A stretch of DNA of 64,000 bases from an uncultured Gammaproteobacteria bacterium (GTDB taxonomy: Bacteria; Patescibacteriota; Microgenomatia; Daviesbacterales; UBA10151), in assembly GCA_964390595.1 (NCBI GenBank), contig CAYMIA010000004.1:4023-68022 (forward strand), given 5' to 3'. The notes below the pieces were generated by a model. That model saw only the letters and a list, made by a program, of their open reading frames with translations. It did no database searches and was not told the origin of the DNA. The position numbers and the translations under genes were made by a program. Shown here in pieces: positions 2,818 to 44,942 of the stretch. Positions within the stretch are counted from its first letter, which is position 1, and the number at the start of each line of letters is the position of its first letter.

Positions 2818-3893
2818 TGAGGTTTGCAGTTTATTCACCTTATTTAGATACCTTTGGAGGTGGCGAAAAGTATCTTTTAACGATCGCTGAGGCTTTAACT
2901 AAATTGGGGGAGGTGGATCTGTTAATTGATACAAATTTAGCTAAAAAAAATCCTAGAAAATTAAAAGAGGTGTTGGCGGACCGTTTTGCGCTGGATCTTG
3001 ATCAAGTCAATTTAGTTAATGCGCCTTTGGGGGCAGGAACCAATTTAGTTTCCAGGGCACTTTTTTTAAAGAAGTATCAGCTGCTTTTTTCTTTCACAGA
3101 TGGGAGTATTTTTTATGCTAGCGCTAAAAAAAATATCCTTCATATTCAAACTCCGCTTGCTAATATTAATTCAAAAAATATTTGGGGGAAAATTAAACTG
3201 AACAGTTGGGATTTAGTAGTTTATAATTCCCAATTTACCAAAAAAAATTCACAGAAAAATTGGTCAATTCCTGGGGAGGTAGTTTACCCGCCAGTTGATG
3301 TGGAAAAAATTGCTCCTTTGGAAAAGAAGAACTATATTTTAAATGTAGGTAGATTTTTTGGTTATCTAAAGATCAAAAAACATGAGTTAATGATTGAAGT
3401 TTTTAAAGAGTTAATTGATACGGGAGAATTAAAAGGATGGGAGTTATATTTAGTGGGGGCGGCAACTGAGGGAGACTTAGAGTATGTTGATGAGTTGAAA
3501 AAAATGGCTAAAGGCTACCCTGTTATATTTGAGGTGAATGCTTCATATGAGCAGTTAGTGAAGCTTTATGGAGAATCAAAAATTTATTGGCATGCGATGG
3601 GCTATGGTGAAGATGATCCAACTAAGATGGAGCATTTTGGAATATCCACAGTTGAGGCGATGTCTGGTGGATGTGTGCCGGTAGTGATTAATAAAGGAGG
3701 GCAACCGGAAATTGTTGAGGATAGAGTATCTGGTTTTTTGTGGGACGAGACCAATCATTTAAAAAAACAAACTTTAACTCTAGTTAAAGACAAAGATATT
3801 TGGAGAAAGTTATCGGTAGAGGCCAGAGTCCGGTCTAGGCAGTTTGGAAAAGAGCATTTTGTTAAAAAAATCTGGGAGCTAGCCAGGAAATGA
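2817..3893 (+). CDS. family 4 glycosyltransferase (GT-B fold)
   Basis: The C-terminal EHFGISTVEAMSGGCVPVVINKGGQPEIVED segment carries the E-x7-E motif of retaining GT4 enzymes. The ATG overlaps the upstream stop (TGATG). Confidence 0.8.
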   Translation: MRFAVYSPYLDTFGGGEKYLLTIAEALTKLGEVDLLIDTNLAKKNPRKLKEVLADRFALDLDQVNLVNAPLGAGTNLVSRALFLKKYQLLFSFTDGSIFYASAKKNILHIQTPLANINSKNIWGKIKLNSWDLVVYNSQFTKKNSQKNWSIPGEVVYPPVDVEKIAPLEKKNYILNVGRFFGYLKIKKHELMIEVFKELIDTGELKGWELYLVGAATEGDLEYVDELKKMAKGYPVIFEVNASYEQLVKLYGESKIYWHAMGYGEDDPTKMEHFGISTVEAMSGGCVPVVINKGGQPEIVEDRVSGFLWDETNHLKKQTLTLVKDKDIWRKLSVEARVRSRQFGKEHFVKKIWELARK

Positions 3894-5572
3894 TTAAAAA
3901 AAATTGGTTAGTCTTGGGTTTAGTGGGAATTTTTATTGCCGCCTTTGTAGTGCGGGTCTACCAGCTAAACTTAGTGCCAATTGAACTTTTTGGGGATGAA
4001 ATTGATGTTGGTTTGCAAGCCAATTCAATTTTAAAGACTGGTAATGATTATTTGGGAAATACTTTTCCGGTCATGTTTCACTCATTTGCTGAGTATCGCT
4101 TGCCCCTTTTTATCTATAGCGATGTACCTTTTGTTGCTTTATTCGGGTTAAATGAATGGGGGGTCAGGTTCTCGGGAGTTTTTTGGGGGATGCTGGGCGT
4201 TTTGGGGATGTATCTGCTTTCAAATAAATTATTGGGGCGAAAAGTTGCTCTGATATCAACGGGTCTGCTAGCTTTTTCGGCTTGGCATATTCAGCTATCA
4301 AGACAAGGTGGAGTTGAGGCGATTATGTTGCTCACTTTTCTAATTTTTGGAGTTTGGAGTTTTTTAAAAGGATTGGATAAATTTAGTTGGCTTATTATCA
4401 GCGTAGTCATCTTTGGACTGTCTTTTTATACTTATGCAATAGCCGATGTTTTAACACCACTTTTTATACTGATGCTTTTAGGTTTGTACCCAAAAAAACT
4501 AAGAGCTTTTGGACTTAGAAAAGCGGCTGTTTTACTGGTTGTTTTGGTGGTAGTTCTTTTACCTTTTATTAATATTACTTTGCAACAGAAATCAACAAAC
4601 CGTTTCTCAAATATATCTATTCTTCATGACTCTAAAATAATACAAAAGGACATCGATGATAGAAGAAAACAAGAAAATCTTTCGTTTGGTTCAGCGGTTT
4701 GGCATAATAAAGTGCTGTCTTTCACAGATTCCTTTTTGCATAATTATTTAGAAAGTTTTTCAAGCGAATTTTTGATTATCAGGGGTGATCCCAATTTACG
4801 CCAATCAGTGGCTGACCGTGGGCAGCTTTATATATTTGAGGTCATAATTTTACTTTTGGGAGTGTATTTTTTTATTGTCAACAAAAAGTTCCCGAAGCTT
4901 TTAATCGGCTGGCTGATTTTGAGTCCAATTCCTGCCGGTTTAACAATTGGTGGGGGAAATCATGCTTCAAGGTTGCTACCAATGTTAATTCCACTCGAGA
5001 TTATAGCTGCTGTTGGGTTATCTTTTTTGTTTGAGCGCAAGAGACTTAAATCTTTTCAAGTTGTCATAGCAGTTGTGGCAGTTCTAGCTTTAATTAACAT
5101 CTCCAGTTACCTTTACCGGTATTACTATGATTGGTCAAAAGATAGTTGGAAATTTTGGCAGTATGGTTATAAGCAGGCGGTAACTTATATCAAGGCCCAT
5201 GACAGCGAATACTCAAAAATTTATTTTAATAACTCATATGAGCCGGCCTTGCCCCGTTTCCTTTTTTGGTATGGATATGATCCAGCTTTATTCCAGCAGC
5301 AGTTTAAAACAGACAAACCAACAGATAACTTAGCTGATGGATTTTCTGGTTTTTCTTTAGGGGATAAATATTTCTTCGGAACTATCACAGATGCAGACAG
5401 AAGAAGAGGTTTGTCAGTCTTGCTGAAACAAAATGAACTGTATATGGTCAGCAGTAAGGATGAAGCTTTTGAGCTAAATTGGGCAAATGAGCTTCCAGTA
5501 GGTTTGCATACTCTTAAAACTGTCTTTAGTCCTTTTAACGATCCTATTTTTTATATAGTAGCAAAGCGGTAG
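3890..5572 (+). CDS. ArnT/PMT-family (GT-C, GT39/GT83-like) polyprenyl-phosphate-sugar dependent membrane glycosyltransferase
   Basis: About 12 predicted TM helices. The N-terminal loop LFGDEIDVGLQANSILKTGNDYLGNTFPVMFHSFAEYRLPLFIY matches the conserved first periplasmic loop of the ArnT/PMT family. It is a paralog of the 11049, 12625 and 14331 genes. Confidence 0.7.
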   Translation: MIKKNWLVLGLVGIFIAAFVVRVYQLNLVPIELFGDEIDVGLQANSILKTGNDYLGNTFPVMFHSFAEYRLPLFIYSDVPFVALFGLNEWGVRFSGVFWGMLGVLGMYLLSNKLLGRKVALISTGLLAFSAWHIQLSRQGGVEAIMLLTFLIFGVWSFLKGLDKFSWLIISVVIFGLSFYTYAIADVLTPLFILMLLGLYPKKLRAFGLRKAAVLLVVLVVVLLPFINITLQQKSTNRFSNISILHDSKIIQKDIDDRRKQENLSFGSAVWHNKVLSFTDSFLHNYLESFSSEFLIIRGDPNLRQSVADRGQLYIFEVIILLLGVYFFIVNKKFPKLLIGWLILSPIPAGLTIGGGNHASRLLPMLIPLEIIAAVGLSFLFERKRLKSFQVVIAVVAVLALINISSYLYRYYYDWSKDSWKFWQYGYKQAVTYIKAHDSEYSKIYFNNSYEPALPRFLFWYGYDPALFQQQFKTDKPTDNLADGFSGFSLGDKYFFGTITDADRRRGLSVLLKQNELYMVSSKDEAFELNWANELPVGLHTLKTVFSPFNDPIFYIVAKR

Positions 5573-5581
5573 AATTGATCT

Positions 5582-6853
5582 ATGAGCAAAGCATTTATAT
5601 CAGTCCTAGTTATTGGAGTTTTAATCAGACTGCTATTTTCTTTCAGCACTTTTCATACAGACATCCGGGCATTCGATTTAGGAGGGCAGATTGTCTCCCG
5701 CGGTCACATCTGGGATTTATATGATTATTTGGCTACCCTAGATCCAAAAGATCCATTGGTTGAGGTCTATAAGTCGGATTTGTTTATCTATCCGCCAGCG
5801 ATTTATCTATTACATGGAATCTTTAGCTCAGTTTTTTCTTCGTTTTTGCCTGCTCCGCTACTGCGCCAATTTTTAGTGGATTATAGTTTGACCTTTGGAA
5901 ATATTTTAATTAACTTGCATCTGCTGTTTTTAAAGCTACCTTATTTAATATTTGATATTGGTTGTGCTTTTTTACTAGCCAAGTTATTTACTGAGAAAAA
6001 ACAACAATTGCAAGCATTTAGTTTGTGGATGTTTAATCCAGTGACTATTTACGCTAGTTTTATGATGGGTCAGTTTGATGTCATACCAACTTTTTTTGTA
6101 ATACTGTCTTTGGTAGTTTTAAAAAAAAGGTGGTTGTTTTTAAGACTCGAGCCACTTTTTGTTAGTGCAATTTGTTTGGGGGTGGGGGCAGCTTTTAAAA
6201 TTTATCCATTGTTTTTGCTGATACCTTTAGCGAGTCTAACTACAGGTTGGAAAAAAAGATTTCTGATCTTACTTTTGGGAAGCTTGCCTTATTTTTTAAG
6301 CGTTTTTCCGTATTTATTTTCAGCTGGATACAGGTCTTCGGCTTTAGTGGCGGGACAGATACTAAAAAGTTTTTACGCAGTCGTTCCGATTTCGGCTGGG
6401 GAGAGTATTATTCTGTTCATGGGAGCGATGATTTTTTTGTTTTTACTCTTTTTGATAAAGAATTTGCCTAGTTCGCCGTCTCTTGTGGAAATGGCCTGGC
6501 GGAGATTTTTTACTATTTTACTGATCTTCTTTATCTTTACCCACTTCCATCCACAATGGTTTGTGTGGATAACGCCTTTTTTGATCATTGACCTGATTGA
6601 AAGCCGGTTCAAACATTGGTTGCTTGTTGTGGGAAGTCTGACCAGCTTTATAGGGATGCTTTTTTTCTTTGACCCTTCTTTGACCGTAGGGCTTTTTAGC
6701 CCAATTTGGAGTCAGTTAGGGCAAATGCCTAGTATTTGGCAGATATTAGGTAGATCGGTTGATTACAATTTGGCGAGAAGTTTGTTGCAGACAGGTTTAG
6801 TTGGTTGTGCTCTTTATTATATTTACGGGGTGTTAACCAAAGAAAAAATCTGA
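5582..6853 (+). CDS. polytopic membrane protein, GT87/DUF2029-like putative mannosyltransferase
   Basis: A multi-TM protein. The N-terminal loop DLYDYLATLDPKDPLVEVYKSDLFIYPPAIYLLHGIF resembles the DUF2029/GT87 signature (D..Y..a......Y......YPP). Confidence 0.5.
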   Translation: MSKAFISVLVIGVLIRLLFSFSTFHTDIRAFDLGGQIVSRGHIWDLYDYLATLDPKDPLVEVYKSDLFIYPPAIYLLHGIFSSVFSSFLPAPLLRQFLVDYSLTFGNILINLHLLFLKLPYLIFDIGCAFLLAKLFTEKKQQLQAFSLWMFNPVTIYASFMMGQFDVIPTFFVILSLVVLKKRWLFLRLEPLFVSAICLGVGAAFKIYPLFLLIPLASLTTGWKKRFLILLLGSLPYFLSVFPYLFSAGYRSSALVAGQILKSFYAVVPISAGESIILFMGAMIFLFLLFLIKNLPSSPSLVEMAWRRFFTILLIFFIFTHFHPQWFVWITPFLIIDLIESRFKHWLLVVGSLTSFIGMLFFFDPSLTVGLFSPIWSQLGQMPSIWQILGRSVDYNLARSLLQTGLVGCALYYIYGVLTKEKI

Positions 6854-9393
6854 TGAAACTTTCAGTAATTACAGTCACCTTTAACAATGAAGAAACAATT
6901 AGTGATCACCTGAAGTCTTTGCAAAAAACTTTGCCAGACCAGAGTGAGATTATTATTGTAGATAATGCTTCGTCGGATAGCACAGTTGAGATAGTTAAAA
7001 GTTTTAAAAGAGTTGAGTTAGTTTCTAACTCAGAGAATCTAGGTTTTTCTAAGGCTAATAATCAAGCTGCTAGAGTGGCCCGGGGTGAATTTTTATTTTT
7101 TATTAATCCTGATGTTCAAATTGAAGGTTCAATTAAGACCATGCTGGATTATATTGAAAGTAACCCTGAGGTGGGGATTTTAGCGCCAAAATTAATTGAC
7201 TCAACAGGTAAAACTCAGGAGTCGGTCTCCAAATTCCCAACTCTTTGGGGAGCGGTTAAGGAGTACCTACTGGATCAAAAAAACTCATACGATGAGTACG
7301 CGCCAAAAACAGACCAGCCAGTTGAAGTAGAGGTAGTATACGGCGCAGCGATGCTGCTACCCGCTCAAGTTTTTAAAAAAATTGGTGGATTCAATCAGAA
7401 ATATTTTCTTTTTTATGAAGATATTGATCTTTGTAAAAAAGTTCACCAACTAAGCTTGAAAGTGATTTATTTTCCTTCAGTTGTATTTAAACATTGGAAA
7501 GGGGTCAGTATGAAAGAGGCGGAAAGAATGCCTGTTGGAATCCGAACACTGTCTTGGTTTATACCGCTTCGAGCCAGTGGGAGTAGGTACTATATGATTA
7601 AAAGTACTCAACTTTATCATGGAGTAACTGTGGCAACTCTGATCCGGATTTTGATGTATTTGAGAACAAAAATAGAGCGGGTGAAATTGAATACTTTGGC
7701 TTGTCTTTTAATTATTTTAATTCTTAGTTTTCCTGCGGTTGCTCATTTAACTAAACCAGGTTTTTTTTCAATGCATGATGACATTCAGGTGATGCGGCTC
7801 TTTGAGATGAATAAGTGTTTGACTGATGGCCAGATTCCCTGCCGTTGGGTACCAGATATGGGAGCGGGTTTTGGACACCCACTTTTCAACTACCATCCGG
7901 TTTTGGGTTATTATACTGGAGCTTTAATTCACAGCTTGGGTTTTTCATATATTGATAGTGTCAAATTACTTTTTGCCCTGACGCTTGTTTTATCCGGTTT
8001 TTTTATGTTTTTTCTTACCCGGGAGTTTTTTGGCAAGTTAGCTGGAGTGGTGGCGGCAGTCTTCTTTGTTTATGCGCCGTATCATGCAGTGGATACATAC
8101 GTCAGAGGGGCGTTAACTGAAGATTTGGGGATACTGTTTTTACCGGTTATTTTTTTCTTTCTGTATAAGTATATTAAAAAACAGCACTTGGGGTTTTTTC
8201 TCGGGAGTATCCTATCTTTGTCAGCGCTTTTGTTAGCTCATAATATTACGGCGCTAATTTTTGTGCCAATAGCTTTAGTTTGGTCTTTGGTCTGGTTGGT
8301 TTATGAGCATAAATTGAAACTGCTTTGGTCTTTGGCGATGATTTTTGGTCTTTCGTTAGGGCTCTCGGCTTTTTTTGTTTTACCCTCAATTTTAGAGTTA
8401 AACCAGATTAATGTTTTGCAAAACTCTGGTTACTATAATTTCCATGATCATTTTGTATCTTTGGGCCAGCTGTTTCTTAAGAGAGAATTTGGTTATGGTG
8501 GTTCGCAGATTGGAAATGATGATTCATTGTCTTTTCAGATCGGTTGGCCACATTGGTGGATTTTGCTTTCATCGATAATTTTAGCAGTCATTTTGGCGAT
8601 AAAAAAGAAAAAATACCCAGTTGAGGTGATTTTTCTGATTTTGCTGACTGTAGGGGCGATTTTTATGACTCATTCTAAGTCAGTGGTGGTTTGGAACTTC
8701 TTTTCTTTTTTGACTTTTGTGCAATTTCCTTGGCGGTTTTTGGGAATTGTAATTTTTGGCTGTGCTTTTTTAGCGGCTTTTTTTATCAGTTTTTGGAGCA
8801 GGGGGGTAAAGTTTTTACTGACAGTGACATTAATTTTAATGGCAATTGTATTAAATGGTTATTATTTTCAGCCAGAGAAACACTTTTATGACCTAACCGA
8901 TCAGCAGATGTTAAGTGGAGAGAACTTTAAAAGACAGTCAATGACAACTTTGCTAGATTATGTTCCCAAAGATGTTAAAAAAGTTCCAGATCAGTTAGCT
9001 CCCAGCCGGCCTTATTCGAGTTTTCCTGAAGTGGAAAGTGGTGAGATGCAAAAAGGTTCTAACACCTGGAATTTTTTAGTCCAAAATCAGACTTCAATGC
9101 CTATTCTATTGCACATTCCAGTGTTTAATTACCCGCGGTGGAGAGTTTTAATAGATGGTAAAGACACCGTTGTTAGCAGTCAAGACCAAACGGGTGTTAT
9201 TGATATAATGGTGCCGGCTGGACAACATTTTGTCTTAGGCACGCTGACTAATACTTTTTGGCGAAGTTTTGGGAACAACTTATCGGTTGTAACTTTACTA
9301 GCCTTGATCCTTTTGGTTTTGACCCGCACCAAAGCATTGGGTACAATAGATTTAAGTGCTTGGATTAAAAATGCTCGCAAATCAACTGTTTAA
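6853..9393 (+). CDS. bifunctional fusion: N-terminal GT2 glycosyltransferase + C-terminal GT-C-like polytopic membrane domain
   Basis: The most likely real start is the ATG at 6853, overlapping the upstream TGA; the ORF track extends it to 6805. Residues 1-~250 are a GT2 (MKLSVITVTFNNEETI...IIIVDNASSDST...NLGFSKANN...FYEDIDLCKK). They are followed by about 600 aa with more than 10 TM helices. The segment FSMHDDIQVMRLFEMNKCLTDGQIPCRWVPDMGAGFGHPLFNYHP is collinear with the N-terminus of the next gene, and both share a QFPWRFLG motif. Confidence 0.65.
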   Translation: MKLSVITVTFNNEETISDHLKSLQKTLPDQSEIIIVDNASSDSTVEIVKSFKRVELVSNSENLGFSKANNQAARVARGEFLFFINPDVQIEGSIKTMLDYIESNPEVGILAPKLIDSTGKTQESVSKFPTLWGAVKEYLLDQKNSYDEYAPKTDQPVEVEVVYGAAMLLPAQVFKKIGGFNQKYFLFYEDIDLCKKVHQLSLKVIYFPSVVFKHWKGVSMKEAERMPVGIRTLSWFIPLRASGSRYYMIKSTQLYHGVTVATLIRILMYLRTKIERVKLNTLACLLIILILSFPAVAHLTKPGFFSMHDDIQVMRLFEMNKCLTDGQIPCRWVPDMGAGFGHPLFNYHPVLGYYTGALIHSLGFSYIDSVKLLFALTLVLSGFFMFFLTREFFGKLAGVVAAVFFVYAPYHAVDTYVRGALTEDLGILFLPVIFFFLYKYIKKQHLGFFLGSILSLSALLLAHNITALIFVPIALVWSLVWLVYEHKLKLLWSLAMIFGLSLGLSAFFVLPSILELNQINVLQNSGYYNFHDHFVSLGQLFLKREFGYGGSQIGNDDSLSFQIGWPHWWILLSSIILAVILAIKKKKYPVEVIFLILLTVGAIFMTHSKSVVVWNFFSFLTFVQFPWRFLGIVIFGCAFLAAFFISFWSRGVKFLLTVTLILMAIVLNGYYFQPEKHFYDLTDQQMLSGENFKRQSMTTLLDYVPKDVKKVPDQLAPSRPYSSFPEVESGEMQKGSNTWNFLVQNQTSMPILLHIPVFNYPRWRVLIDGKDTVVSSQDQTGVIDIMVPAGQHFVLGTLTNTFWRSFGNNLSVVTLLALILLVLTRTKALGTIDLSAWIKNARKSTV

Positions 9394-11071
9394 GCGGAAA
9401 AATTTAGTAATTCTGATAGCCTTAGTAATTTTAATCATTCCGACTTTTTGGAGGATGCTTCGTCCAGGAATATTTTCCATGCAGGACTTTCACATCTTTC
9501 GGCTTTTTGAGTACCACAAATGTGTACTGGATTTGCAAATTCCTTGCCGGTTTAGTCCAGATGCTTCGTTTGAATATGGTCAGCCGATCTTTAATTTTTA
9601 TGGGCAGCTCAGTTATGCTTTTGGAGAGGTCTTTCTTTTTCTGGGAGCTTCCCACATTGATACTTTAAAAATTTTATTTGCCCTTTCCTTGATATTATCT
9701 GGCCTGTCAATGTTTCTGCTTTCAAAGCAGATGTGGAAGAGTAATTTGGCGGCACTGGTTAGCGCTTTGGTTTATGTTTACGCGCCTTACCGGGCTGTTG
9801 ATGTGTATGTTCGGGGAGCCTTGCCTGAAGCATTTGCTTTTATTTTCTTTCCTTTAATCATTTATTTTTTGAACCGCTTTATTTCGAATCAAAGACAGCG
9901 TGATTTGGTATTTTTTTCTTTAACTTTGGCTGGTTTGATTTTGACACATAACATCTCAGCGTTAATGTTTACCATCTTCCTAGTTATATGGGGAGTGTTT
10001 GTAATCGTTAAAAATCGAGCTTGGAAAGTAATTCCTAAGCTTTTAGTTTCCTGTCTGTTAATCCTTGGTTTGGTGAGCTTTTACATCCTGCCGGTAATTG
10101 GAGAAAGTTCTTATACATCTTTGAATGCGACCACTCAAGGTTATTTTCAATACATCAATCATTATGTCACTCTAAATCAGCTGCTGTTTTCACGGTTTTG
10201 GGGTTATGGAGGGTCAGGCTTTGGAGATCAGGATGGGTTGAGTTTGTCAGTTGGACACTTGCAGTGGATCCTGCCTATTATTGGAGTTTTATTGCTGCTG
10301 GTTTTGCGTAAATGGAGAGAATATAGTGGAGCTCTAGTTTTGTTTGGATTGGGTTGGTTGTTTTTATTTTTGACTCATAATAAATCAACGCCGATCTGGC
10401 AGCTTATTTCACCATTTCATTACATTCAGTTTCCTTGGCGGTTTTTAGGGATGGCTGTTTTTAGTTTCGCGCTTGGTAGTGGAGTGATCATTACATTGAT
10501 CCGCCAGAATTTCTGGCAGAAAATGGCAGTAATTATTATTTGTGTAATGGTCATTGGTTTGAATTTTGGATTTTTCTTTGAAGATCTGTGGTTTAAGATC
10601 GATGATAGGGCTCAATTTAGCGGTAAGAATTATGAACAATTAATTAGCGCCTCGATTGAAGATTACTGGCCAAGATATGGGGCACATGTACCAAGCAAAA
10701 TAGCGCCAAAAGATCCATTGGTGACAGAGGGGGTTGGTTCATCCAAACCAGTTAGTAAATCCACCAATCAGGCTAAATATAATGTGGATATTAGGTCAAA
10801 ACAGGCCTTAGTGACTATTCCGGTAGTTTATTTTCCAGGTTGGGTGGGGTTTGTTGACGGTAAACCCACTAGTATTTTTCCTGAACCAGATTTGGGAGCG
10901 ATCACTTTTCAAGTTCCTCAGGGATTTCATACTGTTTCAGTTAAATTTACTGACACTCCAGTTCGGGTTATTGGCAATCTAATCTCCTTTTTAACTATTT
11001 TTTTATTCTGCCTGATCTTTTTTAAATATGAACTGATTAAAAAATACTATGAAAAAGTTTTTAAGAGATAA
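9356..11071 (+). CDS. polytopic membrane protein, standalone paralog of the C-terminal membrane domain of the preceding GT2 fusion (GT-C-like)
   Basis: FSMQDFHIFRLFEYHKCVLDLQIPCRFSPDASFEYGQPIFNFYGQ and YIQFPWRFLGM match the upstream fusion protein. The C-terminal VYFPGWVGFVDGKP motif resembles the C-terminal beta-domain of YfhO/AftD-like proteins. The start could be 9356 or the ATG at 9371. Confidence 0.55.
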   Translation: MLGLKMLANQLFKRKNLVILIALVILIIPTFWRMLRPGIFSMQDFHIFRLFEYHKCVLDLQIPCRFSPDASFEYGQPIFNFYGQLSYAFGEVFLFLGASHIDTLKILFALSLILSGLSMFLLSKQMWKSNLAALVSALVYVYAPYRAVDVYVRGALPEAFAFIFFPLIIYFLNRFISNQRQRDLVFFSLTLAGLILTHNISALMFTIFLVIWGVFVIVKNRAWKVIPKLLVSCLLILGLVSFYILPVIGESSYTSLNATTQGYFQYINHYVTLNQLLFSRFWGYGGSGFGDQDGLSLSVGHLQWILPIIGVLLLLVLRKWREYSGALVLFGLGWLFLFLTHNKSTPIWQLISPFHYIQFPWRFLGMAVFSFALGSGVIITLIRQNFWQKMAVIIICVMVIGLNFGFFFEDLWFKIDDRAQFSGKNYEQLISASIEDYWPRYGAHVPSKIAPKDPLVTEGVGSSKPVSKSTNQAKYNVDIRSKQALVTIPVVYFPGWVGFVDGKPTSIFPEPDLGAITFQVPQGFHTVSVKFTDTPVRVIGNLISFLTIFLFCLIFFKYELIKKYYEKVFKR

Positions 11072-12659
11072 CCTAGCTTTAATTCTGATACTGATTTTGG
11101 GAGGGTTCTTGATATTCTGGGGGAGTGTGCCTCCCTCTCTGAATTGGGATGAGGCTTCCTTGGGGTATAATGCCTATTCAATTTTAAAAACTGGCCGGGA
11201 TGAATGGGGCAGGGTAATGCCGCTGAGCTTTGAAGCCTTTGGAGATTACAAGCTACCAGGTTATATCTATACTTTAGTTCACTTTGAAGCGATCTTTGGA
11301 TTGCATCCTTGGGTGGTGAGACTCCCATCACAGCTAGCTGGACTTATTTCAATTGGTTTACTGTATTTAATCATTTGGAAAATGACTAAAAATAAAAGAT
11401 GGGCAGTTGCAGCAGGTTTACTTCTGGCTATTTCCCCCTGGCATAGTTTAGTTTCTAGAGTGGCCTTAGAAGCTAATTTGGCTTTGAGTTTTTTTCTGGC
11501 TGCCTTATATTTTGGTATCTTAGGTTTTAAGAAAAGAAGGTTTTGGCTCTTTGCCAGTGTTTTGCTGGGACTCTCTTTATTTACCTATAATTCAGCCAGA
11601 CTTTTTATTCCACTTTTTTTAATTTCTGCTGTAATAATTTACTGGAAAAAGATAATTCAACTAAAACGGTCGCTGGTTTTACCAGGGTTGATACTTTTAC
11701 CTTTTTTTCTGGGGGCGGTTTATCTAGCTGTTTTTGTAGATAGCAGTTCTAGATACTACTGGATAAGTATTGTTGATCAAGGTGCAATTAATTATTTAAA
11801 TGAGTCGAGAGCTCAAAGCCAGTGGCCAGAGGCTGTGACTAAATTGGTTTTTAACAGATTTACCTATTTTGGCTTTAAAGCTGGGGGGAATTACTTGAGC
11901 TATTTTTCCCCGCAATATCTGTTTTTTTCAGGTGGATCAAACTATCAATTTTCAACGCCTGGTTATGGAGAACTTTATCTGATAGAGTTTCCTTTTTTGA
12001 TTTTTGGATTATTTCAGTTGTTAAAAAAAAGATACCGCTTCGGTATATTACTGGCTTGGTTTTTAATTGCTCCAATTTCAGCTTCAATAACTAGAGAAGC
12101 ACCACATGTTTTAAGATCACTGTTTTTTCTGGCTGTTTTACCAATCATCTCTGGTTTAGGGTTGTTGTCACTCATTGATCTATTTAAAAGAAACACATAT
12201 AGAAAAATAGCTGTTGGATTTGTATCTTTGTTTTTTTTGTTAAGCGCCGGTCTATATTTTTACAATTACTTTAAAGTTTATCCAGTGAAATATTCTCAGT
12301 CTTTTCAATATGGGATGAAACAAGTAGTTGAGTATGTTAATACCCATCCTGGGAAGGTCATTTATATATCTAAACATTCAGGTGAACCGCATATTTTTTA
12401 TCTTTTTTTCAGCCAATACGATCCAGCTAGATACCAAAACAATCCAACTTTGATTAGATACGCAAAGAGTAACTGGAGATGGGTGGATAGAATTGATAAT
12501 ATATATTTTGTGAATGATTGGGAAGTTAAGAATAAGTTAAAAAATCAAGTTGGGGTGATTTTAATCACCTCTCCTGGAAATTATCCTAATGGGTGGAAAG
12601 TCCAAGAATCAATTTATTACTTAGATGGTACCAAAGCTTTTGATGTTGTTTCGGCCTAA
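11049..12659 (+). CDS. ArnT/PMT-family GT-C membrane glycosyltransferase (paralog 2)
   Basis: NWDEASLGYNAYSILKTGRDEWGRVMPLSFEAFGDYKLPGYIYTLV is the conserved family loop. It is multi-TM and overlaps the upstream gene by 23 nt. Confidence 0.7.
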   Translation: MKKFLRDNLALILILILGGFLIFWGSVPPSLNWDEASLGYNAYSILKTGRDEWGRVMPLSFEAFGDYKLPGYIYTLVHFEAIFGLHPWVVRLPSQLAGLISIGLLYLIIWKMTKNKRWAVAAGLLLAISPWHSLVSRVALEANLALSFFLAALYFGILGFKKRRFWLFASVLLGLSLFTYNSARLFIPLFLISAVIIYWKKIIQLKRSLVLPGLILLPFFLGAVYLAVFVDSSSRYYWISIVDQGAINYLNESRAQSQWPEAVTKLVFNRFTYFGFKAGGNYLSYFSPQYLFFSGGSNYQFSTPGYGELYLIEFPFLIFGLFQLLKKRYRFGILLAWFLIAPISASITREAPHVLRSLFFLAVLPIISGLGLLSLIDLFKRNTYRKIAVGFVSLFFLLSAGLYFYNYFKVYPVKYSQSFQYGMKQVVEYVNTHPGKVIYISKHSGEPHIFYLFFSQYDPARYQNNPTLIRYAKSNWRWVDRIDNIYFVNDWEVKNKLKNQVGVILITSPGNYPNGWKVQESIYYLDGTKAFDVVSA

Positions 12660-14334
12660 TATAATTTTGAGCGGGCTGGTTTTAATCCTTTTACTAGGTG
12701 GACTGCTTAGAGCTTATCAGATTGGTAGTAATCCACCAGGTTTAACTTGGGATGAGGCCTCCTTTGGTTATAACGCCTATTCAATTTTAAAAACAGGTAA
12801 AGATGAATACGGCAATTTTTTGCCATTACAACTTAAATCTTTTGGTGACTATAAACCAGCAGTTTATACTTACCTCTCGATTCCATTTATAGCCACCTTA
12901 GGTTTAACTGAAACCGCTGTTAGGTTGCCAAATGTTATATTGGGGACTTTAACAATATTGATGGTTTATCTTTTGGTTAACTTACTTTTTAAGAATAAGT
13001 TTCTGGCTTTGGCCTGCGCCTTGATGATGGCGATTTCGCCTTACGCGATTCAATTTTCGCGTCCAGCTTATGAGGTTAGTACAGCTTTGTTTTTTAATAT
13101 TTCAGCGGCTTATTTTTTTGTCCGGGGGTTAAAAAAACCGCAATTTTTTATATTGTCGGCTTTATTTTTTGGATTATCACTTTTTACCTATCAAGCCTCC
13201 AGGCTGTTTGTGCCATTGATAGTTTTGGCTTTAGTTATTACCAATATAAAAGAACTGAAGCTATCCAAGTTTTTGGTGGCATCTGGGGTAACGCTGGCAG
13301 TTTTTATGGCTTTGGCTGGTTTGCTGATTATACTTTTCCATCAGTCTAATCGAATTGCTGCAACCAGCTATTTTAAATATGCTGATAACAGGGCTACCAT
13401 TTCCCTGGCTAAACAAGAGAGCCCGAATGGTTATTCGAATTTAGGATTTCAGATCTTGCATGGAGATTGGTTTTACAACATTAGGGGGCTTGGGGAGCAT
13501 TATTTGATCTATTTTTCCCCATCAATTTTATTTGTTAATGGTGATTATGATCTGAGACACAAAGTTCCAGACTTGGGAGTTTTGTATTATATATCAGCAG
13601 TATTGATACCCCTTGGACTGGTTTTGGCCTTCAAAAAAAAGGAATCAAAGATTATTCTACTCTGGCTTTTGATTGCTCCACTGCCTGCAGTGCTTTCCAG
13701 GGATTTAATTAATTTTCAGCGGGCTTTTAATTTAAGTTTACCTCTATCTGTGCTGGAGGGGTTTGGGTTATATTTTCTGGTCAAGTACCTACTAACTTTA
13801 CCAAAAGTTAAATCCAGTATCCTTCTTTCTATAGTTAGTTTGGTAATTTTGGGAAATTTTTTAATCTATCTGGACCGGTATTTTGTTCATGGTCCAAAGG
13901 AACTTTCCAGAGGTTGGTTGTATGGTTACAAAGAAGTAATGTTGGGTTTAGCGCCTGAGAAGTACCAGCAAGTTATTATGACAGATTTTTATAAACAACC
14001 ATATATTTTCTATCTATTTTATAAACAGTATCCGCCTGAAAAGTTCCAAAAACAGGCAGTTTTGGATCAGCCAACTGCAGATGTAGGAGAGATTAAAAGG
14101 ATTGATAATATTGAGTTTAGACATGTTTATTTTCCTGATGATAGAAATCTGAAGAATACCTTGCTGATTGGGATAGAAGATGAGTTGCCAGATAATGATG
14201 TTAAGGGAGCGCAGGGTAGTCAGTTAATTGGTCAAATTAACTTTTTAGATCAGACACCAGCTTTTAGAATAGTGGAGAATGAATCTTCACGAGCAGGTAC
14301 TCGCAGCTTTTCTTCTGGAGAAAAAAATAGATGA
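12625..14334 (+). CDS. ArnT/PMT-family GT-C membrane glycosyltransferase (paralog 3)
   Basis: LTWDEASFGYNAYSILKTGKDEYGNFLPLQLKSFGDYKPAVYTYL. It is multi-TM. The alternative start at ATG 12643 is also possible. Confidence 0.7.
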   Translation: MVPKLLMLFRPNIILSGLVLILLLGGLLRAYQIGSNPPGLTWDEASFGYNAYSILKTGKDEYGNFLPLQLKSFGDYKPAVYTYLSIPFIATLGLTETAVRLPNVILGTLTILMVYLLVNLLFKNKFLALACALMMAISPYAIQFSRPAYEVSTALFFNISAAYFFVRGLKKPQFFILSALFFGLSLFTYQASRLFVPLIVLALVITNIKELKLSKFLVASGVTLAVFMALAGLLIILFHQSNRIAATSYFKYADNRATISLAKQESPNGYSNLGFQILHGDWFYNIRGLGEHYLIYFSPSILFVNGDYDLRHKVPDLGVLYYISAVLIPLGLVLAFKKKESKIILLWLLIAPLPAVLSRDLINFQRAFNLSLPLSVLEGFGLYFLVKYLLTLPKVKSSILLSIVSLVILGNFLIYLDRYFVHGPKELSRGWLYGYKEVMLGLAPEKYQQVIMTDFYKQPYIFYLFYKQYPPEKFQKQAVLDQPTADVGEIKRIDNIEFRHVYFPDDRNLKNTLLIGIEDELPDNDVKGAQGSQLIGQINFLDQTPAFRIVENESSRAGTRSFSSGEKNR

Positions 14335-15962
14335 AATTATTCTGGCAAAAATATTGGATCAGTTTGATATTGGTGGCCATTTTGGGGTTGGGACTTTTTT
14401 TGCGGACAGCTTGGTTAAGTAGCTTCCCAGCTGGGTTTAACGCTGATGAAGCGGCAATTGGCTACAATGCTTACTCTTTACTCCAAACAGGTAAGGATGA
14501 ATATGGAACAGCGTTTCCACTGGCCTTTAAATCATTCGGGGATTTTAAACCGGGACTTTATTTTTATTTTGTCTTACCTTTTGTGGCTATTTTTGGATTA
14601 ACTGAGTTAGCAGTGCGTTTACCCTCAGCTCTTTTTGGGGTGGGGACTATCTTTTTGATTTTTCTGCTTTCAAATGAGGTCTTTAAAGACCGGAGAATTG
14701 GACTAATCAGTGCTTTTTTGCTTTCAATTACTCCTTGGCATATTCATTTTAGTAGAGGTGGATGGGAGACTAATGTTGCCACTTTTTTTATAACTTTAGG
14801 CGTTTTTCTTTTTATAAAGGGCTTGCGGTCAAATTGGGTGATGTTTTGGAGTCTATTTTCTTTTCTGATCTCGATGTATCTTTACCAATCACCCCGGTTG
14901 GTAGTGCCAGTTTTGGTTTTAGGTTTAGGATTATTTTTTAGGAAGCAGCTTAAAGTTAACTTTAAAGCCAAAATTAAATATCTAATTGTCCTTTTGGTTT
15001 TAACGGTTCCACTAGTTTTACAATTTACCTCTGGTGGTGGAAGCTCACGCTTTTCAGGTCTGTCTTTTTTGTCTGATGCTGGGCCTAAGTCCCGGGTGGA
15101 GCAGCTGCGGGGTGAGCATGATAGCAAATTAATTGCCACTCTTTTACATAATAAAGTGACAGGTTATGGAACTAATTTTTTAGGACATTATTTGGATCAT
15201 TTTAGTTTAGATTTCTTATTTATTAATGGGGATCCATTGATCCGCAATAAAGTTCCAGAGGTTGGTCAGTTTTATCTAATTGAGGCTTTGTTTTTGGTGG
15301 TTGGATTTTGGGGGTTGGTTAAACAGAAAATTAAATTAGGGCTTTTATTAATTCTTTGGATATTGATCTCGCCGCTTGCCTCTTCACTGACTTACCAAAC
15401 GCCAAGTGCGCTTAGAGCATTAAGTATGGTTGTGCCGTTAACTATGATCATGGGGTTTGGATTGTGGAGCTTGCTAACCTCGGTTAAAAAATTACCTTGG
15501 CGGTTTTTAGCAGTTGGTTTAATTGGAGTAATTTTAATTTTTGAAACAGCCCACTACCTGGATGCTTATTTTATTCATTACCCAAAACGATACCCGCTAT
15601 CATGGGAGTATGGATTTAATCAAATGGTTGATAAGTTGCAACAATATCAGAGTCAATATAAAAGAGTGGTTATAACTGACCGTTATGATCAACCCTACAT
15701 TCTGGTTTTGTTTTATGAAAAATATGACCCTAAAAAATATCAGCCCCAAGCTAAGTTAACTGACCGGGACAAATTTAATTTTGGGACTGTCAGGAGTTTT
15801 GATAAATATGAATTTCACAGTATTACTACCAAAGAGTTTAAGGGAGCTAAGGACACACTTTTTATTGGAACAGAAAGTGAGATAGAAGACAAGGCCCGGA
15901 TATTTGATAGAATTAAATTTCCAAACGGAGAAGACGTCTTTGTATTTGCCAAGAGTGATTAA
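14331..15962 (+). CDS. ArnT/PMT-family GT-C membrane glycosyltransferase (paralog 4)
   Basis: FNADEAAIGYNAYSLLQTGKDEYGTAFPLAFKSFGDFKPGLYFY. It is multi-TM and the start overlaps the upstream stop (ATGA). Confidence 0.7.
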   Translation: MKLFWQKYWISLILVAILGLGLFLRTAWLSSFPAGFNADEAAIGYNAYSLLQTGKDEYGTAFPLAFKSFGDFKPGLYFYFVLPFVAIFGLTELAVRLPSALFGVGTIFLIFLLSNEVFKDRRIGLISAFLLSITPWHIHFSRGGWETNVATFFITLGVFLFIKGLRSNWVMFWSLFSFLISMYLYQSPRLVVPVLVLGLGLFFRKQLKVNFKAKIKYLIVLLVLTVPLVLQFTSGGGSSRFSGLSFLSDAGPKSRVEQLRGEHDSKLIATLLHNKVTGYGTNFLGHYLDHFSLDFLFINGDPLIRNKVPEVGQFYLIEALFLVVGFWGLVKQKIKLGLLLILWILISPLASSLTYQTPSALRALSMVVPLTMIMGFGLWSLLTSVKKLPWRFLAVGLIGVILIFETAHYLDAYFIHYPKRYPLSWEYGFNQMVDKLQQYQSQYKRVVITDRYDQPYILVLFYEKYDPKKYQPQAKLTDRDKFNFGTVRSFDKYEFHSITTKEFKGAKDTLFIGTESEIEDKARIFDRIKFPNGEDVFVFAKSD

Positions 15963-17928: not shown

Positions 17929-19182
17929 ATGAAAAAAAAGATTCAATTACTGCTAAATAATCAGCTGCTTGGTAACAGCGTCTTAATGATAATTGGTTTT
18001 AACGGTGGGAATGCGATCAATTATCTATACCACTTGATTATGGCTAGAATTTTAGGGCCGGCTCATTACGGAGAGTTAGCCACCTTAATAAATGTGATTG
18101 GGATTGTTAGCATGATACCAGCTTCGCTGTCTTTGGTAATTGTTAAGTTTGTATCGTCGGCTAAGTCGGCTGATCAGATTAGCGGGTTACTTAATTGGTT
18201 CGTCAAAAAAACTTATATCGCATCCGGTGTTGTTTCATTGGTTTTTTTAATTCTTAGTCCAGTTTTAGCTAAGTTTTTAAATATTGATAATGTATCACTG
18301 CTAGTGATTCTAGCTTTGACGTTTTTATTTATTTTACCAGCGCTTTTTTATCGTTCAGTTTTGCAGGGACTTTTAAAATTTAAAGAATATGTTATCTCGG
18401 TTTTATCTGAGAATACAATTAAATTAGTCTTTGGAATAGGGTTTGTTTTAGCTGGTTTTTCTGTTTTTGGAGCGATGATTGGATTTGTAGCTGCCACTTG
18501 TTTGGGGTTTTTTCTGAGCAGACACTTTATTAGGATACACCGTAGCCGGGATGTTCAGCCACCCAATTTAGGGAGTCTCTTTAGCTACTCGTTGCCAGTG
18601 CTGATTCAGTCAGTGGCGGTTACATCTTTACTATCAGTTGATGTCATTTTAGTGAAACATTTTTTTGATTCTTACCAAACCGGAATTTATGCAGCTTTTT
18701 CATCTTTAGGAAAGATTATCTTTTATGGTGCCGGACCGATCAGCGCGGTGATGTTTCCTCTGGCTTCGGCCAAAGCTGCCCGCGGCGAAAGTTCGTCAAG
18801 GGTATTTTTATATAGCGTTGGCGCAACTGCGCTACTTGTTTTTGGGGTGGTGTTGATTTATCTATTCTTTCCGAGACTCGCTATTAATATTCCTTTTGGG
18901 AGCTCATATCTGCAGTATTCACAACTGCTAGTTTATTTTGGTTTGTTTATGGGAATGTTTACAATTGGCTATTTATTTACCAACTACTTTTTATCAATCT
19001 CTAAGACTAAAGCGATTGTTTTACCAGTAATAGCTGCTCTAGTTCAGGTAGTTGGGATATTTATTTTTCATAAAAGTTTGCAGTCGGTCATATTAGTTTC
19101 ACTTTTTGCTGGGTTTTTACTGCTTGTTTCATCAGTTGGCTATTTCTTATATCTCTTGCAAACTGACAAAAAAATAGGCTAA
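17929..19182 (+). CDS. Wzx-like oligosaccharide flippase (MOP/polysaccharide biosynthesis protein family)
   Basis: About 12 TM helices at 417 aa. The N-terminal LGNSVLMIIGFNGGNAINYLYHLIMARILGPAHYGELATL matches the Polysacc_synt N-terminal signature. Confidence 0.7.
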   Translation: MKKKIQLLLNNQLLGNSVLMIIGFNGGNAINYLYHLIMARILGPAHYGELATLINVIGIVSMIPASLSLVIVKFVSSAKSADQISGLLNWFVKKTYIASGVVSLVFLILSPVLAKFLNIDNVSLLVILALTFLFILPALFYRSVLQGLLKFKEYVISVLSENTIKLVFGIGFVLAGFSVFGAMIGFVAATCLGFFLSRHFIRIHRSRDVQPPNLGSLFSYSLPVLIQSVAVTSLLSVDVILVKHFFDSYQTGIYAAFSSLGKIIFYGAGPISAVMFPLASAKAARGESSSRVFLYSVGATALLVFGVVLIYLFFPRLAINIPFGSSYLQYSQLLVYFGLFMGMFTIGYLFTNYFLSISKTKAIVLPVIAALVQVVGIFIFHKSLQSVILVSLFAGFLLLVSSVGYFLYLLQTDKKIG

Positions 19183-19191
19183 GCTTGGCGT

Positions 19192-20004
19192 ATGGATTCT
19201 ATCCGGTTGATTTCGGTGATTGTTCCTTCATACAAACAGGAACAAACTATTCTACAGAATTTAAAAAGAATTAAATTGGTTTTAGATCAATTGCGCTATC
19301 CTACTGAGTTAATTTGCGTGGTGGATGGAACAAATGTCGATCAAACTTTTGAAAAGGCGCTTAAGTTTGCTAAATTGCAAAAAAACGTTAAAGTGGTGGG
19401 ATATGAACACAACAAAGGTAAGGGGTATGCAGTCCGCTTTGGGATGGCAGAAAGTAAAGGGGACATCATTGCTTTTATTGATGCTGGGACTGATTTAGAT
19501 CCGAATGGGTTGTCGATGCTTCTGGAACATTTTGAATGGTATAAAGCCGATATTGTGATTGGTTCAAAAAGACACCCCGCTTCTAAAGTTAACTATCCTT
19601 GGCAAAGAAAGATCTTGTCTTTTGGTTATCAAATTTTAGTCCGATTACTTTTTGGTTTGACAGTTAAAGATACTCAGGTGGGGATGAAGTTTTATAGGCG
19701 GGAAGTTTTAGAAAAAGTTTTGCCACGTCTTTTAGTCAAAGCTTTTGCTTTTGATATTGAAATTTTGGCAGTGGCTAATTATTTGGGGTATAAAAGGATC
19801 TTTGAAGCACCAGTGGAGATTAAATTGGACTTTGGAGGAACTTCAACTGTGACCAGCCGGAAGTTTATAAGAACAGTATTATTAATGGTTCAGGATACTT
19901 TAGCTGTTTTTTACAGACTGAGGATAACTAAATATTACTCGGATAAAAATCAACGCAAATGGCGCTTTGATCCTGAGTTGAATTTCCGGGTTAATGTAGG
20001 TTAA
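19192..20004 (+). CDS. polyprenyl-phosphate sugar synthase (DPM1/GtrB/ArnC-like GT2)
   Basis: ISVIVPSYKQEQTI..., IDAGTDLDP, and the C-terminal TQVGMKFYRREVLEKVLPRLLVKAFAFDIEILAVANYLGYK are typical of dolichyl/undecaprenyl-phosphate mannose/glucose synthases. Confidence 0.75.
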   Translation: MDSIRLISVIVPSYKQEQTILQNLKRIKLVLDQLRYPTELICVVDGTNVDQTFEKALKFAKLQKNVKVVGYEHNKGKGYAVRFGMAESKGDIIAFIDAGTDLDPNGLSMLLEHFEWYKADIVIGSKRHPASKVNYPWQRKILSFGYQILVRLLFGLTVKDTQVGMKFYRREVLEKVLPRLLVKAFAFDIEILAVANYLGYKRIFEAPVEIKLDFGGTSTVTSRKFIRTVLLMVQDTLAVFYRLRITKYYSDKNQRKWRFDPELNFRVNVG

Positions 20005-24150: not shown

Positions 24151-24178
24151 TTGCAAAACTTTAATTGATTTGTATAAT
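24151..24178 (+). promoter_or_regulatory. candidate sigma70-like promoter in divergent intergenic region (TTGCAA-16nt-TATAAT)
   Basis: TTGCAA at 24151-24156, a 16-nt spacer, then TATAAT at 24173-24178. It sits immediately upstream of the ATG at 24189, implying a very short leader or a leaderless transcript. Confidence 0.35.
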
Positions 24179-24188
24179 CCAGTTAAGC

Positions 24189-38971: not shown

Positions 38972-39052
38972 AAGTTACTTTCTATTGATAATCTGAGGTC
39001 AATTATATATTGTATGTATGAATTAGCCGGGAGTCTCGGGCTTTTAGGTAAT

Positions 39053-44775: not shown

Positions 44776-44942
44776 CTAGCTGGTTCTTGAGATTAATGGC
44801 TGTTGGGTTTTTAATCGATTTGTTTGGTTTGGTGGTTTTACTTTCAATTCATCGGCTGGCCCATATTCAGGAGCTATTAAATATTTTGCTAGTGATAATT
44901 ATTTTTTCATTAGTTTTATACCTACTTGATTTAAGAAAATGA
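44772..44942 (+). CDS. small (56 aa) two-TM membrane protein, translationally coupled micro-ORF
   Basis: The ATG at 44772 overlaps the TGA of the upstream MTase. Its TGA at 44940-44942 overlaps the ATG of the downstream gene at 44939. It translates to MTSWFLRLMAVGFLIDLFGLVVLLSIHRLAHIQELLNILLVIIIFSLVLYLLDLRK. It is absent from the ORF track because it is under 60 aa. Confidence 0.3.
   Translation: MTSWFLRLMAVGFLIDLFGLVVLLSIHRLAHIQELLNILLVIIIFSLVLYLLDLRK

Follow-up and report, generated by a model that had tools for sequence, protein, structure and literature searches.

Genes and features at the locus

We analysed a 64,000-nucleotide (nt) stretch of contig CAYMIA010000004.1 (assembly GCA_964390595.1), referred to in full as the window, which carries a gene for a two-domain glycosyltransferase (ORF1) followed by a gene for a paralogue of its membrane half (ORF2). 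The features of the two genes are listed below; the subfamilies named there are those of the trees described further on.

6853..9393, + strand: ORF1, 846 amino acids (aa), GT2 domain and predicted subfamily A GT-C module (continuous open reading frame (ORF), Pfam, AlphaFold (AF2) model)
6853..7512, + strand: catalytic core of the GT2 domain (GT-A fold), residues 1-220 (Pfam, NCBIfam, Foldseek, profile against PDB)
7582..7680, + strand: helix pair that ends the GT2 module, residues 244-256 and 258-276 (from DSSP of the AF2 model)
7668..7683, + strand: fusion junction, with an A5 run (7668-7672), an out-of-frame TAG (7673-7675) and an in-frame GTG (7681-7683, V277)
7681..9393, + strand: predicted GT-C module of ORF1, subfamily A (AF2 secondary structure, invariant columns, tree placement)
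7765..7857, + strand: motif of the predicted first outside loop (EL1), FSMHDDIQVMRLFEMNKCLTDGQIPCRWVPD; D309, R315, C322, C330, R331 and D335 are invariant in 45 fusions
8722..8745, + strand: QFPWRFLG motif of ORF1, residues 624-631; Q624-R628 are invariant in 45 fusions
9371..11071, + strand: ORF2, 566 aa, standalone predicted GT-C paralogue of subfamily B (PF10131, AF2, Foldseek, tree)

ORF1 runs without interruption from ATG 6853 to its stop at 9393. The mechanical start call was TTG 6805; ATG 6853 overlaps the stop codon of the preceding gene by one nucleotide (TGATG), and translation from it gives a protein identical to the database protein P0001. For ORF2, ATG 9371 (giving P0121, 566 aa) is likelier than the alternative GTG 9356, and the two genes overlap by 23 nt. 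Pfam recognised Glycos_transf_2 (residues 4-125) and Glyco_tranf_2_3 (residues 3-223) in ORF1, together with a weak PMT_2 match and PTPS_related (PF10131) at residues 345-699, the latter at 26.0 bits, 0.4 under the gathering cutoff of 26.4. ORF2 exceeded this cutoff (PF10131, 45.0 bits) and matched no other Pfam family. AF2 models built on 45-sequence alignments had a mean local confidence (pLDDT) of 83 and a predicted TM-score (pTM) of 0.77 for ORF1, and of 93 and 0.92 for ORF2. BLASTP aligned ORF1 residues 294-821 with ORF2 residues 29-554, collinear from end to end at 35% identity and 56% positives (E 6e-97), a similarity far beyond chance. The motif FSMHDDIQVMRLFE occupies residues 305-318 of ORF1, and ORF2 carries both FSMQDFHIFRLFE and QFPWRFLG. 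A preliminary description of this DNA had reported a complete GT2 domain fused in frame to a multi-transmembrane (TM) domain, a next gene encoding a paralogue of the membrane half only, and motifs common to both proteins; the continuous ORF, the Pfam matches, the AF2 models (GT-A fold; membrane domain of ~570 aa), the BLASTP alignment and the presence of the quoted motifs, QFPWRFLG included, in both proteins bear this out.

Fold and topology of the membrane modules

GT-C enzymes take their sugar from lipid-linked donors and act on the outer face of the membrane; canonically they have 8-13 or more TM helices and one or more acidic residues in the first extracytoplasmic loop. The 30 best Foldseek matches of the ORF2 model in the PDB were all GT-C proteins (AftD, PglB/STT3, EmbA/B, Pmt4, AftA, ArnT and DPY19), with probabilities of 0.94-1.00, modest E-values of 1e-3 to 8e-2 and TM-scores of 0.30-0.47. 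With this shared fold and conserved acidic residues in the predicted EL1, the membrane domain is, on its models, a GT-C fold. The fold check that the preliminary description had proposed (GT-C, YfhO or another fold) thus came out as GT-C by AF2 and Foldseek, with PF10131/YfhO-like Pfam matches. Sequence searches of the PDB with ORF1 and with profile A2 returned no solved relative of the membrane domain. PF10131 belongs to Pfam's GT-C clan and has no assigned function (PMC7801869). Among 45 members of the family, PF10131 matched 26 (E<=1e-3), YfhO 13 and PMT_2 six. Neither ORF1 nor ORF2 matched PF09586 at E<=0.01, and by this sequence test the two proteins are related to YfhO within the clan and not members of YfhO in the strict sense.

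In the predicted layout of the subfamily A module, TM1 (residues 281-300) leads into EL1, which is followed by ~12 more helices, a beta-sandwich (727-798) that is extracytoplasmic in the topology predicted from the AF2 secondary structure, and a final TM helix (802-828). Since the GT2 domain must be cytoplasmic, TM1 would enter from the inside and the acidic loop would face out; a KRK cluster precedes TM1 of ORF2 and would fix the same topology. The EL1 residues of ORF1 have direct equivalents in ORF2 (D309/D39, R315/R44, C322/C51, C330/C59, D335/D64), which are also invariant in 45 A/B-type proteins, and the invariant Cys pair fits the predicted outside location of the loop. We consider D309 a catalytic candidate, along with D335, R315 and the C322/C330 pair. 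Further motifs shared by the membrane modules are APY..VD.YVRGA, HN and QFPWR. Both paralogues retain every conserved residue, and ORF2 is therefore probably active too.

The GT2 module

The GT2 domain of ORF1 scored 82 bits against PF00535 (cutoff 23.3), has a DXD-type motif and a GT-A fold, and carries the core motifs VDN (D37), NPD (N85/D87), YEDID (E189/D190/D192) and H214. NPD is invariant across the 45 fusions, and E189, D190 and D192 are conserved among them, which would fit, as expected, a catalytic base acting on a hydroxyl acceptor. A Foldseek search of the PDB with the whole ORF1 model was dominated by GT-A enzymes (GalNAc-T2, WrtF; E ~1e-10). The two C-terminal helices of the module, which presumably sit at the membrane interface, also end its standalone orthologues, as seen when the module is aligned with the GT2 of L003, a syntenic contig from Logan, as far as the stop of the latter.

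To which kind of GT2 the domain belongs was addressed with profile A1, an alignment of 45 GT2::GT-C fusion proteins. Against structures of DPMS, GtrB and ArnC (5mlz, 5ekp, 9hwj, 9bhc, 8vxh) the profile was covered only from positions 1-2 to ~105-130, the nucleotide-binding N-terminal part, and not over the whole catalytic domain as would be expected of a polyprenyl-phosphate glycosyltransferase. Its acceptor half aligned with GlfT2 (positions 53-260, E 7e-5) and TgGalNAc-T3 (positions 3-218). Among NCBIfam models, the rhamnosyltransferase family TIGR01556 reached 55.8 bits, below its 200-bit cutoff, and MftF, EpsD and, weakly over the N-terminal 110 residues, PgaC/IcaA were further sub-threshold matches. 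Automated JGI names of homologues read WbbL-type. Five other GT2s of the surrounding island are paralogues of the domain, and BLAST detected no similarity between it and the DPMS-like GT2 at 19192-20004. A regular-expression search found no Q..RW in ORF1; the sole Q..WR-like motif, QFPWR, lies in the membrane module. The domain is N-terminal and standalone in relatives, unlike that of a processive synthase, in which QxxRW is present and the GT2 lies between TM helices. On this evidence the GT2 of ORF1 looks like a WbbL/GlfT-like elongating enzyme. It shares with WbbL, GlfT1 and GlfT2, which act on polyprenyl-diphosphate-linked glycans, the GlfT2 profile match over the full domain, the rhamnosyltransferase match and the NPD and EDxD motifs, and differs from them in its C-terminal helices, its fusion to a GT-C module and its scores under the family cutoffs.

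The closest GT2 relatives among the matches listed were 44-57% identical, 276-286 aa long and all standalone, and covered 99-100% of the query; this search returned only standalone proteins, missing P0001 and the clade C fusions, and is unfit for counts of fused and unfused forms. The GT2 half of ORF1 groups with standalone GT2s from L003 (45% identical as far as the stop codon) and from L001; the corresponding half of a second fusion protein, P0184, also belongs there.

The two membrane modules belong to old, separate subfamilies

Neighbour-joining (NJ) trees of 243 and 448 membrane modules (100 bootstraps) split them into at least four subfamilies: A (including ORF1), B (including ORF2), C (canonical fusions and standalone proteins) and D2. 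Subfamilies were assigned from the 448-sequence tree, as the best-hit labels of GTDB loci were misleading owing to the fourth subfamily, D2. Subfamily B including ORF2 was recovered in 100/100 bootstraps and subfamily A including ORF1 in 87/100 (NJ). Identity to standalone A-type proteins of other genomes is 51-56% for the membrane half of ORF1, and identity to B-type proteins elsewhere is 55% for ORF2; between the two the value is 35%. On L003, A and B are adjacent and unfused, and after them come the same three PMT_2 genes, then a GT2 and a GT4. Tandem arrays of the [C][A][D2] type are conserved across Woese-, Davies- and Shapirobacteria, with flanking GT2-GT2-GT2-GT4 and GT87-like genes, and the homologues all carry labels of the Candidate Phyla Radiation (CPR)/Patescibacteria (Woese-, Davies-, Shapiro- and Blackburnbacteria, Microgenomates group). 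Because A and B fall into different old subfamilies and already lie side by side, unfused, in relatives, their duplication is, on this sequence evidence, ancient, and the fusion a separate and much later event. The earlier suggestion that duplication and fusion are visible in situ does not hold for this pair, as the copies belong to distinct old subfamilies and relatives have A and B unfused.

Compared to the Pfam families PF10131 and PF09586 as described, the PF10131-type family found here comprises at least four tandem CPR subfamilies (A, B, C, D2) and is sometimes fused to GT2 domains or to itself. Many GTDB representative contigs with this CPR-type cluster (L005-L080) are titled "uncultured Gammaproteobacteria bacterium" or "Clostridia bacterium", which are probably placeholder or wrong labels for metagenome-assembled genomes of Patescibacteria.

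Fusions of the same GT2 lineage in other genomes

A search for the same fusion in related genomes, as the preliminary description had proposed, found at least 45 other CPR proteins with this architecture, but their membrane half belongs to subfamily C. These full-length GT2::GT-C fusions form at least 45 clusters at 90% identity (JGI, ENA, NCBI, Logan), including one from a complete genome (CP055308.1); at 50% identity there are ~6 fused clusters compared to >100 standalone ones. P0184 is a singleton GT2::B-type fusion (L084:257-2755, Logan SRR21686417), whose junction TTAAAAATGAGG reads TTA AAA ATG AGG; with one A fewer it becomes AAA TGA overlapping ATG, an ancestral ATGA stop/start. On JGI contig Ga0172379_10022719 (L088:3-1646), a GT2 of the ORF1 lineage reads in frame, with no stop or start, into a GT87-like membrane protein that is an orthologue of the product of the gene upstream of ORF1 (5582-6853). 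Unfused neighbours were also found: L087 has the order [GT87-like][GT2][B-type], its GT2 ending in ...YLARK* with a TAATG stop/start overlap, and ORF1-type GT2 genes adjoin GT-C(-like) genes in L087 and L015 and lie near them in L003 and L001. By these sequence comparisons, the GT2 lineage is persistently located next to polytopic GT-C(-like) genes and has been joined to at least four partners (A, B, C and GT87-like). The adjacent GT2 of L035 was considered as a split fusion and rejected, as it belongs to another GT2 lineage.

Two other kinds of fusion involve the same GT-C family. P0376 (821 aa) joins a GtrB/ArnC/DPMS-like GT2 (5eke, E 9e-20) to a GT-C module that keeps GYFPMHDD, IPCRW and QFPWR, and from its sequence would amount to a covalent polyprenyl-phosphate sugar synthase::GT-C enzyme. 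In P0002-P0004 (1096-1120 aa), an A-type and a D2-type module are fused head to tail, an arrangement whose topology requires both termini to lie in the cytoplasm and which suggests that tandem GT-C paralogues act together as a unit. The GT-A::GT-C fusion architecture was not found described in the literature searched, including work on PF10131 and on CPR GT-C enzymes. A set of giant proteins of 1,200-4,400 aa (P0429-P0505) with 3-9 separate GT2-profile stretches resembles multi-GT2 "megaenzymes".

Anatomy of the fusion junction

The preliminary description had warned of a possible frameshift near nt 7600-7700, and the warning was apt, as the junction contains an A5 run (7668-7672) and the fusion needs one of its A residues. 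The junction codons (nt 7660-7683) read TTG AGA ACA AAA ATA GAG CGG GTG (L R T K I E R V). When one A is deleted from the run, the frame becomes ACA AAA TAG and stops after ...YLRTK*, immediately behind the Lys that is homologous to the C-terminal residue of the L087 GT2 (...YLARK*, AGA AAA TAATG). GTG 7681 follows 5 nt past this restored stop, at the position where standalone A- and B-type proteins begin, and is likely the ancestral start of the membrane gene. We propose that the ORF1 fusion arose by insertion of one A (+1) at the ancestral stop/start boundary. With a single inserted base separating it from a pair of coupled genes, the fusion is either very young or the product of an indel error.

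We consider it likely that the fusion is real and very recent. The other explanation is that it is an indel artefact of assembly or sequencing, or a private mutation without function, in which case the real locus would be two translationally coupled genes, a 273-aa GT2 ending in ...MYLRTK* at the TAG and an A-type GT-C starting at GTG 7681, with the functions of the modules unchanged. We think this doubtful, though well worth weighing: the deletion of a single A restores both the stop homologous to the L087 GT2 end and the GTG start 5 nt on, P0184 as a second singleton fusion bears the same extra-A signature, ORF1 is the sole fused protein of its clade (one sequence on one contig), and both its closest A-type relatives (51-56% identity) and the closest GT2 orthologues listed (44-57% identity, 276-286 aa) are standalone. 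The state of the assembly argues against an error, as 53 genes tile 98.9% of positions 241-63261 and none is split despite 809 A/T runs of >=5, which puts the per-run indel rate below ~0.4%. The same GT2 lineage is moreover fused to three other partners in independent datasets that include a complete genome, so that such fusions do arise and persist. Scans of metagenome contigs for the exact junction pattern with A4 or A5 gave no match either way, and a protein-guided metagenome scan returned relatives at <=67% identity over the best-matching segment, none of them fused at this junction.

Proposed role of ORF1 and alternative readings

Other genes of the island, several of which enter the proposed pathway, are listed first.

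3890..5572, + strand: PMT_2-type GT-C gene (Pfam PF13231, 47.8 bits)
5582..6853, + strand: upstream polytopic membrane protein, 423 aa, GT87-like (conserved cluster member)
11049-12659, 12625-14334 and 14331-15962, + strand: three tandem PMT_2/PMT-type GT-C genes (Pfam)
17929..19182, + strand: candidate Wzx-type flippase (Pfam Polysacc_synt, 77.5 bits)
19192..20004, + strand: DPMS/GtrB/ArnC-like GT2, candidate polyprenyl-phosphate sugar synthase for GT-C donors (phmmer against PDB: 5mlz (DPMS), E 1.1e-15, residues 7-219; GtrB and ArnC also matched)
62626-63261: Bac_transf enzyme, candidate initiating transferase

With slightly better than even confidence, we read ORF1 as a two-module membrane glycosyltransferase that combines an elongating GT2 on the inner face with an outward-facing GT-C within one lipid-linked glycan pathway. 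The N-terminal module would be a cytoplasmic inverting GT2 that uses a nucleotide sugar to glycosylate a hydroxyl of a lipid-linked glycan, and its C-terminal helices would run straight into TM1 of the PF10131/YfhO-like GT-C module, whose Asp/Arg/Cys-pair loop would face outward. The substrates, the acceptor and the order of steps that we infer are as follows. Polyprenyl phosphate would be primed by the DPMS-like GT2 or by the Bac_transf enzyme; the polyprenyl-(di)phosphate-linked glycan would be extended on the inner face by the GT2 of ORF1 and other GT2 and GT4 enzymes of the island; a Wzx flippase would carry it across the membrane; and the A and B GT-C modules, with the neighbouring PMT_2-type GT-Cs, would hand the lipid-borne sugar or oligosaccharide on to a protein or glycopolymer of the cell surface. 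The fusion would thereby tether the inner-face step to the outer-face step and form no channel. ORF2 may work with the A module as its partner; A::D2 fusion proteins and the conservation of tandem arrays among Woese-, Davies- and Shapirobacteria speak for this.

Several points weigh against this role. The GT2 sub-type was assigned from profile coverage and sub-threshold family matches, which support a resemblance rather than membership. A flipping step lies between the two reactions, so that a fusion of inner and outer enzymes would bring no obvious kinetic benefit. P0376 joins a GtrB-like GT2 to this GT-C family, so that polyprenyl-phosphate synthases also occur as partners. ORF1 is the only fused member among ~53-62 subfamily A clusters, a singleton represented by one sequence on one contig, and its fusion hangs on one A in a homopolymer.

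An alternative explanation is that ORF1 is a fused system of the three-component type, in which the GT2 makes a polyprenyl-phosphate sugar (as CsbB, GtrB, GacI and PgfS do) that its own GT-C uses outside (as YfhO, GtrX, GacL and PgfM1 do). The pairing of GT-A and GT-C follows the logic of the known systems (PMC12041528, PMC10821137), the Pfam matches of the GT-C family overlap YfhO, and P0376 is a GtrB/ArnC-like GT2 fused to this very family. We nevertheless find it improbable for ORF1, as its GT2 resembles GtrB, DPMS and ArnC in the N-terminal third only, matches GlfT2 and GalNAc-T across its acceptor half, conserves the E/D that would be expected if a catalytic base acts on a hydroxyl, and groups with the WbbL-like island paralogues and not with the DPMS-like GT2 at 19192-20004. 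By type of GT2, the idea of a fused CsbB-YfhO thus fails for ORF1 and fits P0376. Less probable again is that the repeated, independent fusions (A, B, C and GT87-like, and also a GtrB-like GT2) represent a physically coupled carrier-lipid cycle in CPR enzymes, in which the GT-C would free polyprenyl phosphate outside and the lipid would return straight to the tethered GT2 to be loaded anew, perhaps with the GT-C as a scramblase; we offer this as a long shot. If true, such an enzyme would be a self-contained glycosylation machine suited to a scarce, possibly scavenged polyprenol pool.

The preliminary description had hinted at a self-contained synthase with a transferase or translocase-like membrane domain; in this reading the GT2 would polymerise a glycan that the membrane part translocates, as in cellulose, hyaluronan and poly-N-acetylglucosamine (PNAG) synthases. 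As in BcsA, HAS, PgaC and NodC, a GT2 domain and many TM helices share one polypeptide, and the weak PgaC/IcaA matches point the same way. We nonetheless regard this reading as highly improbable: unlike those enzymes, ORF1 has no QxxRW in its GT2 half (QFPWR lies in the membrane module and is common to standalone proteins), its WbbL/GlfT-like GT2 is N-terminal and not inserted between TM helices, being a soluble or peripheral standalone protein in relatives, and its membrane part has a predicted GT-C fold with an outward acidic loop and stands alone in most genomes. The island also has separate genes for Wzx flippases and a DPMS-like GT2.

Comparison with characterised systems

The two-module reading of ORF1 was compared to two groups of known systems. 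Documented precedents for it are the lactococcal pathway described below and, among the multicomponent transmembrane glycosylation systems, the three- and four-component ones of Gram-positive bacteria. The multicomponent systems comprise GtrB/GtrA/GtrX, CsbB-GtcA-YfhO and GtlA/GtlB (lipoteichoic acid), GacI/J/K/L, and GtrB-PgtC2 and PgfS-PgfM1 (Ser/Thr-rich proteins). As in these systems (PMC12041528), a cytoplasmic GT-A/GT2 enzyme and a predicted outward GT-C are encoded together, and the GT-C family of the window overlaps YfhO/PMT_2 in Pfam and has acidic residues in a predicted extracytoplasmic loop. Such systems also have a dedicated flippase, either small and of GtrA/GtcA type or of Wzx type; the island has two Wzx-like genes (17929-19182 and 47681-48955), either of which may serve ORF1 and ORF2. 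The GT2 of the multicomponent systems is a polyprenyl-phosphate sugar synthase and the components are separate proteins, whereas the GT2 of ORF1 appears WbbL/GlfT-like and is covalently fused; the GT-C of the window also differs in being CPR-specific and PF10131-type, with tandem paralogues, a beta-sandwich and a final TM helix. In the synthesis of the lactococcal polysaccharide pellicle (PSP), cytoplasmic glycosyltransferases extend a sugar carried on C55-P, a Wzx-type protein flips the product and GT-C enzymes polymerise or transfer it (PMC10821137). Each step of this PSP/rhamnose-rich pathway (WpsA/B, WpsC, the flippase WpsG, the GT-Cs WpsH and WpsJ) has candidates in the window. The elongating glycosyltransferase and the GT-C are separate proteins there, compared to fused here, and the likeness is one of pathway logic.

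GT2::GT-C is an uncharacterised domain architecture that follows the known logic of lipid-linked glycosylation by GT-A plus GT-C, and public CPR data already contain it without comment. CPR bacteria are mostly uncultured and how they build their surface is little understood. As the locus shows, tandem GT-Cs form a conserved battery in Microgenomates, and one GT2 lineage is repeatedly adjacent or fused to them. As a "Rosetta stone", the fusions would tie a cytoplasmic elongating transferase to the PF10131 GT-C family and fix its membrane topology, and fusions and topology together give concrete candidates for reconstitution, with the caveat that the ORF1 copy depends on one nucleotide. If active, a covalent GT-A::GT-C enzyme would offer a compact means of studying the coordination between inner-face and outer-face steps in lipid-linked glycosylation.

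The surrounding glycan island

The window (GC ~37%, nearly all genes on the + strand) is a glycan-assembly island with ~14 GT2 and ~11 GT4 genes, two Wzx-like flippases (the second at 47681-48955), a Wzy_C-like protein, the Bac_transf initiating transferase, and modification genes for epimerases/dehydratases, methyltransferases and hexapeptide acyltransferases. Scans for tRNAs and Rfam families returned no matches in the window. Between 3890 and 15962, seven polytopic GT-C(-like) genes are consecutive: PMT_2, GT87-like, GT2::A, B and three PMT_2. Batteries of 3-6 tandem GT-C genes recur in loci of Woese-, Davies- and Shapirobacteria (L001, L004, L010, L016, L019). The 5582-6853 protein had no Pfam match; its orthologues in L087, L004, L010 and L015 (44-48% identity) have weak GT87 or Mannosyl_trans/PIG-M matches. 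The DPMS/GtrB-like GT2 (19192-20004) lies directly downstream of the Wzx-like flippase (17929-19182), and the Davies- and Shapirobacteria loci L016 and L019 interleave 2-3 DPMS-like GT2 genes with their GT-C arrays.

Four large ORFs had no Pfam match even at E<=1: 27480-29234 (-, 584 aa), 31214-33229 (-, 671 aa), 39014-42316 (+, 1100 aa) and 44939-47668 (+, 909 aa). The second of these, which BLAST weakly matched to a B-type GT-C (E 1e-8, 25% over 303 aa), may be a GT-C of this family that has diverged very far. Another bifunctional enzyme of the island is encoded at 24165-25580, a 471-aa protein with an N-terminal Methyltransf_23 and a C-terminal GT2 domain.

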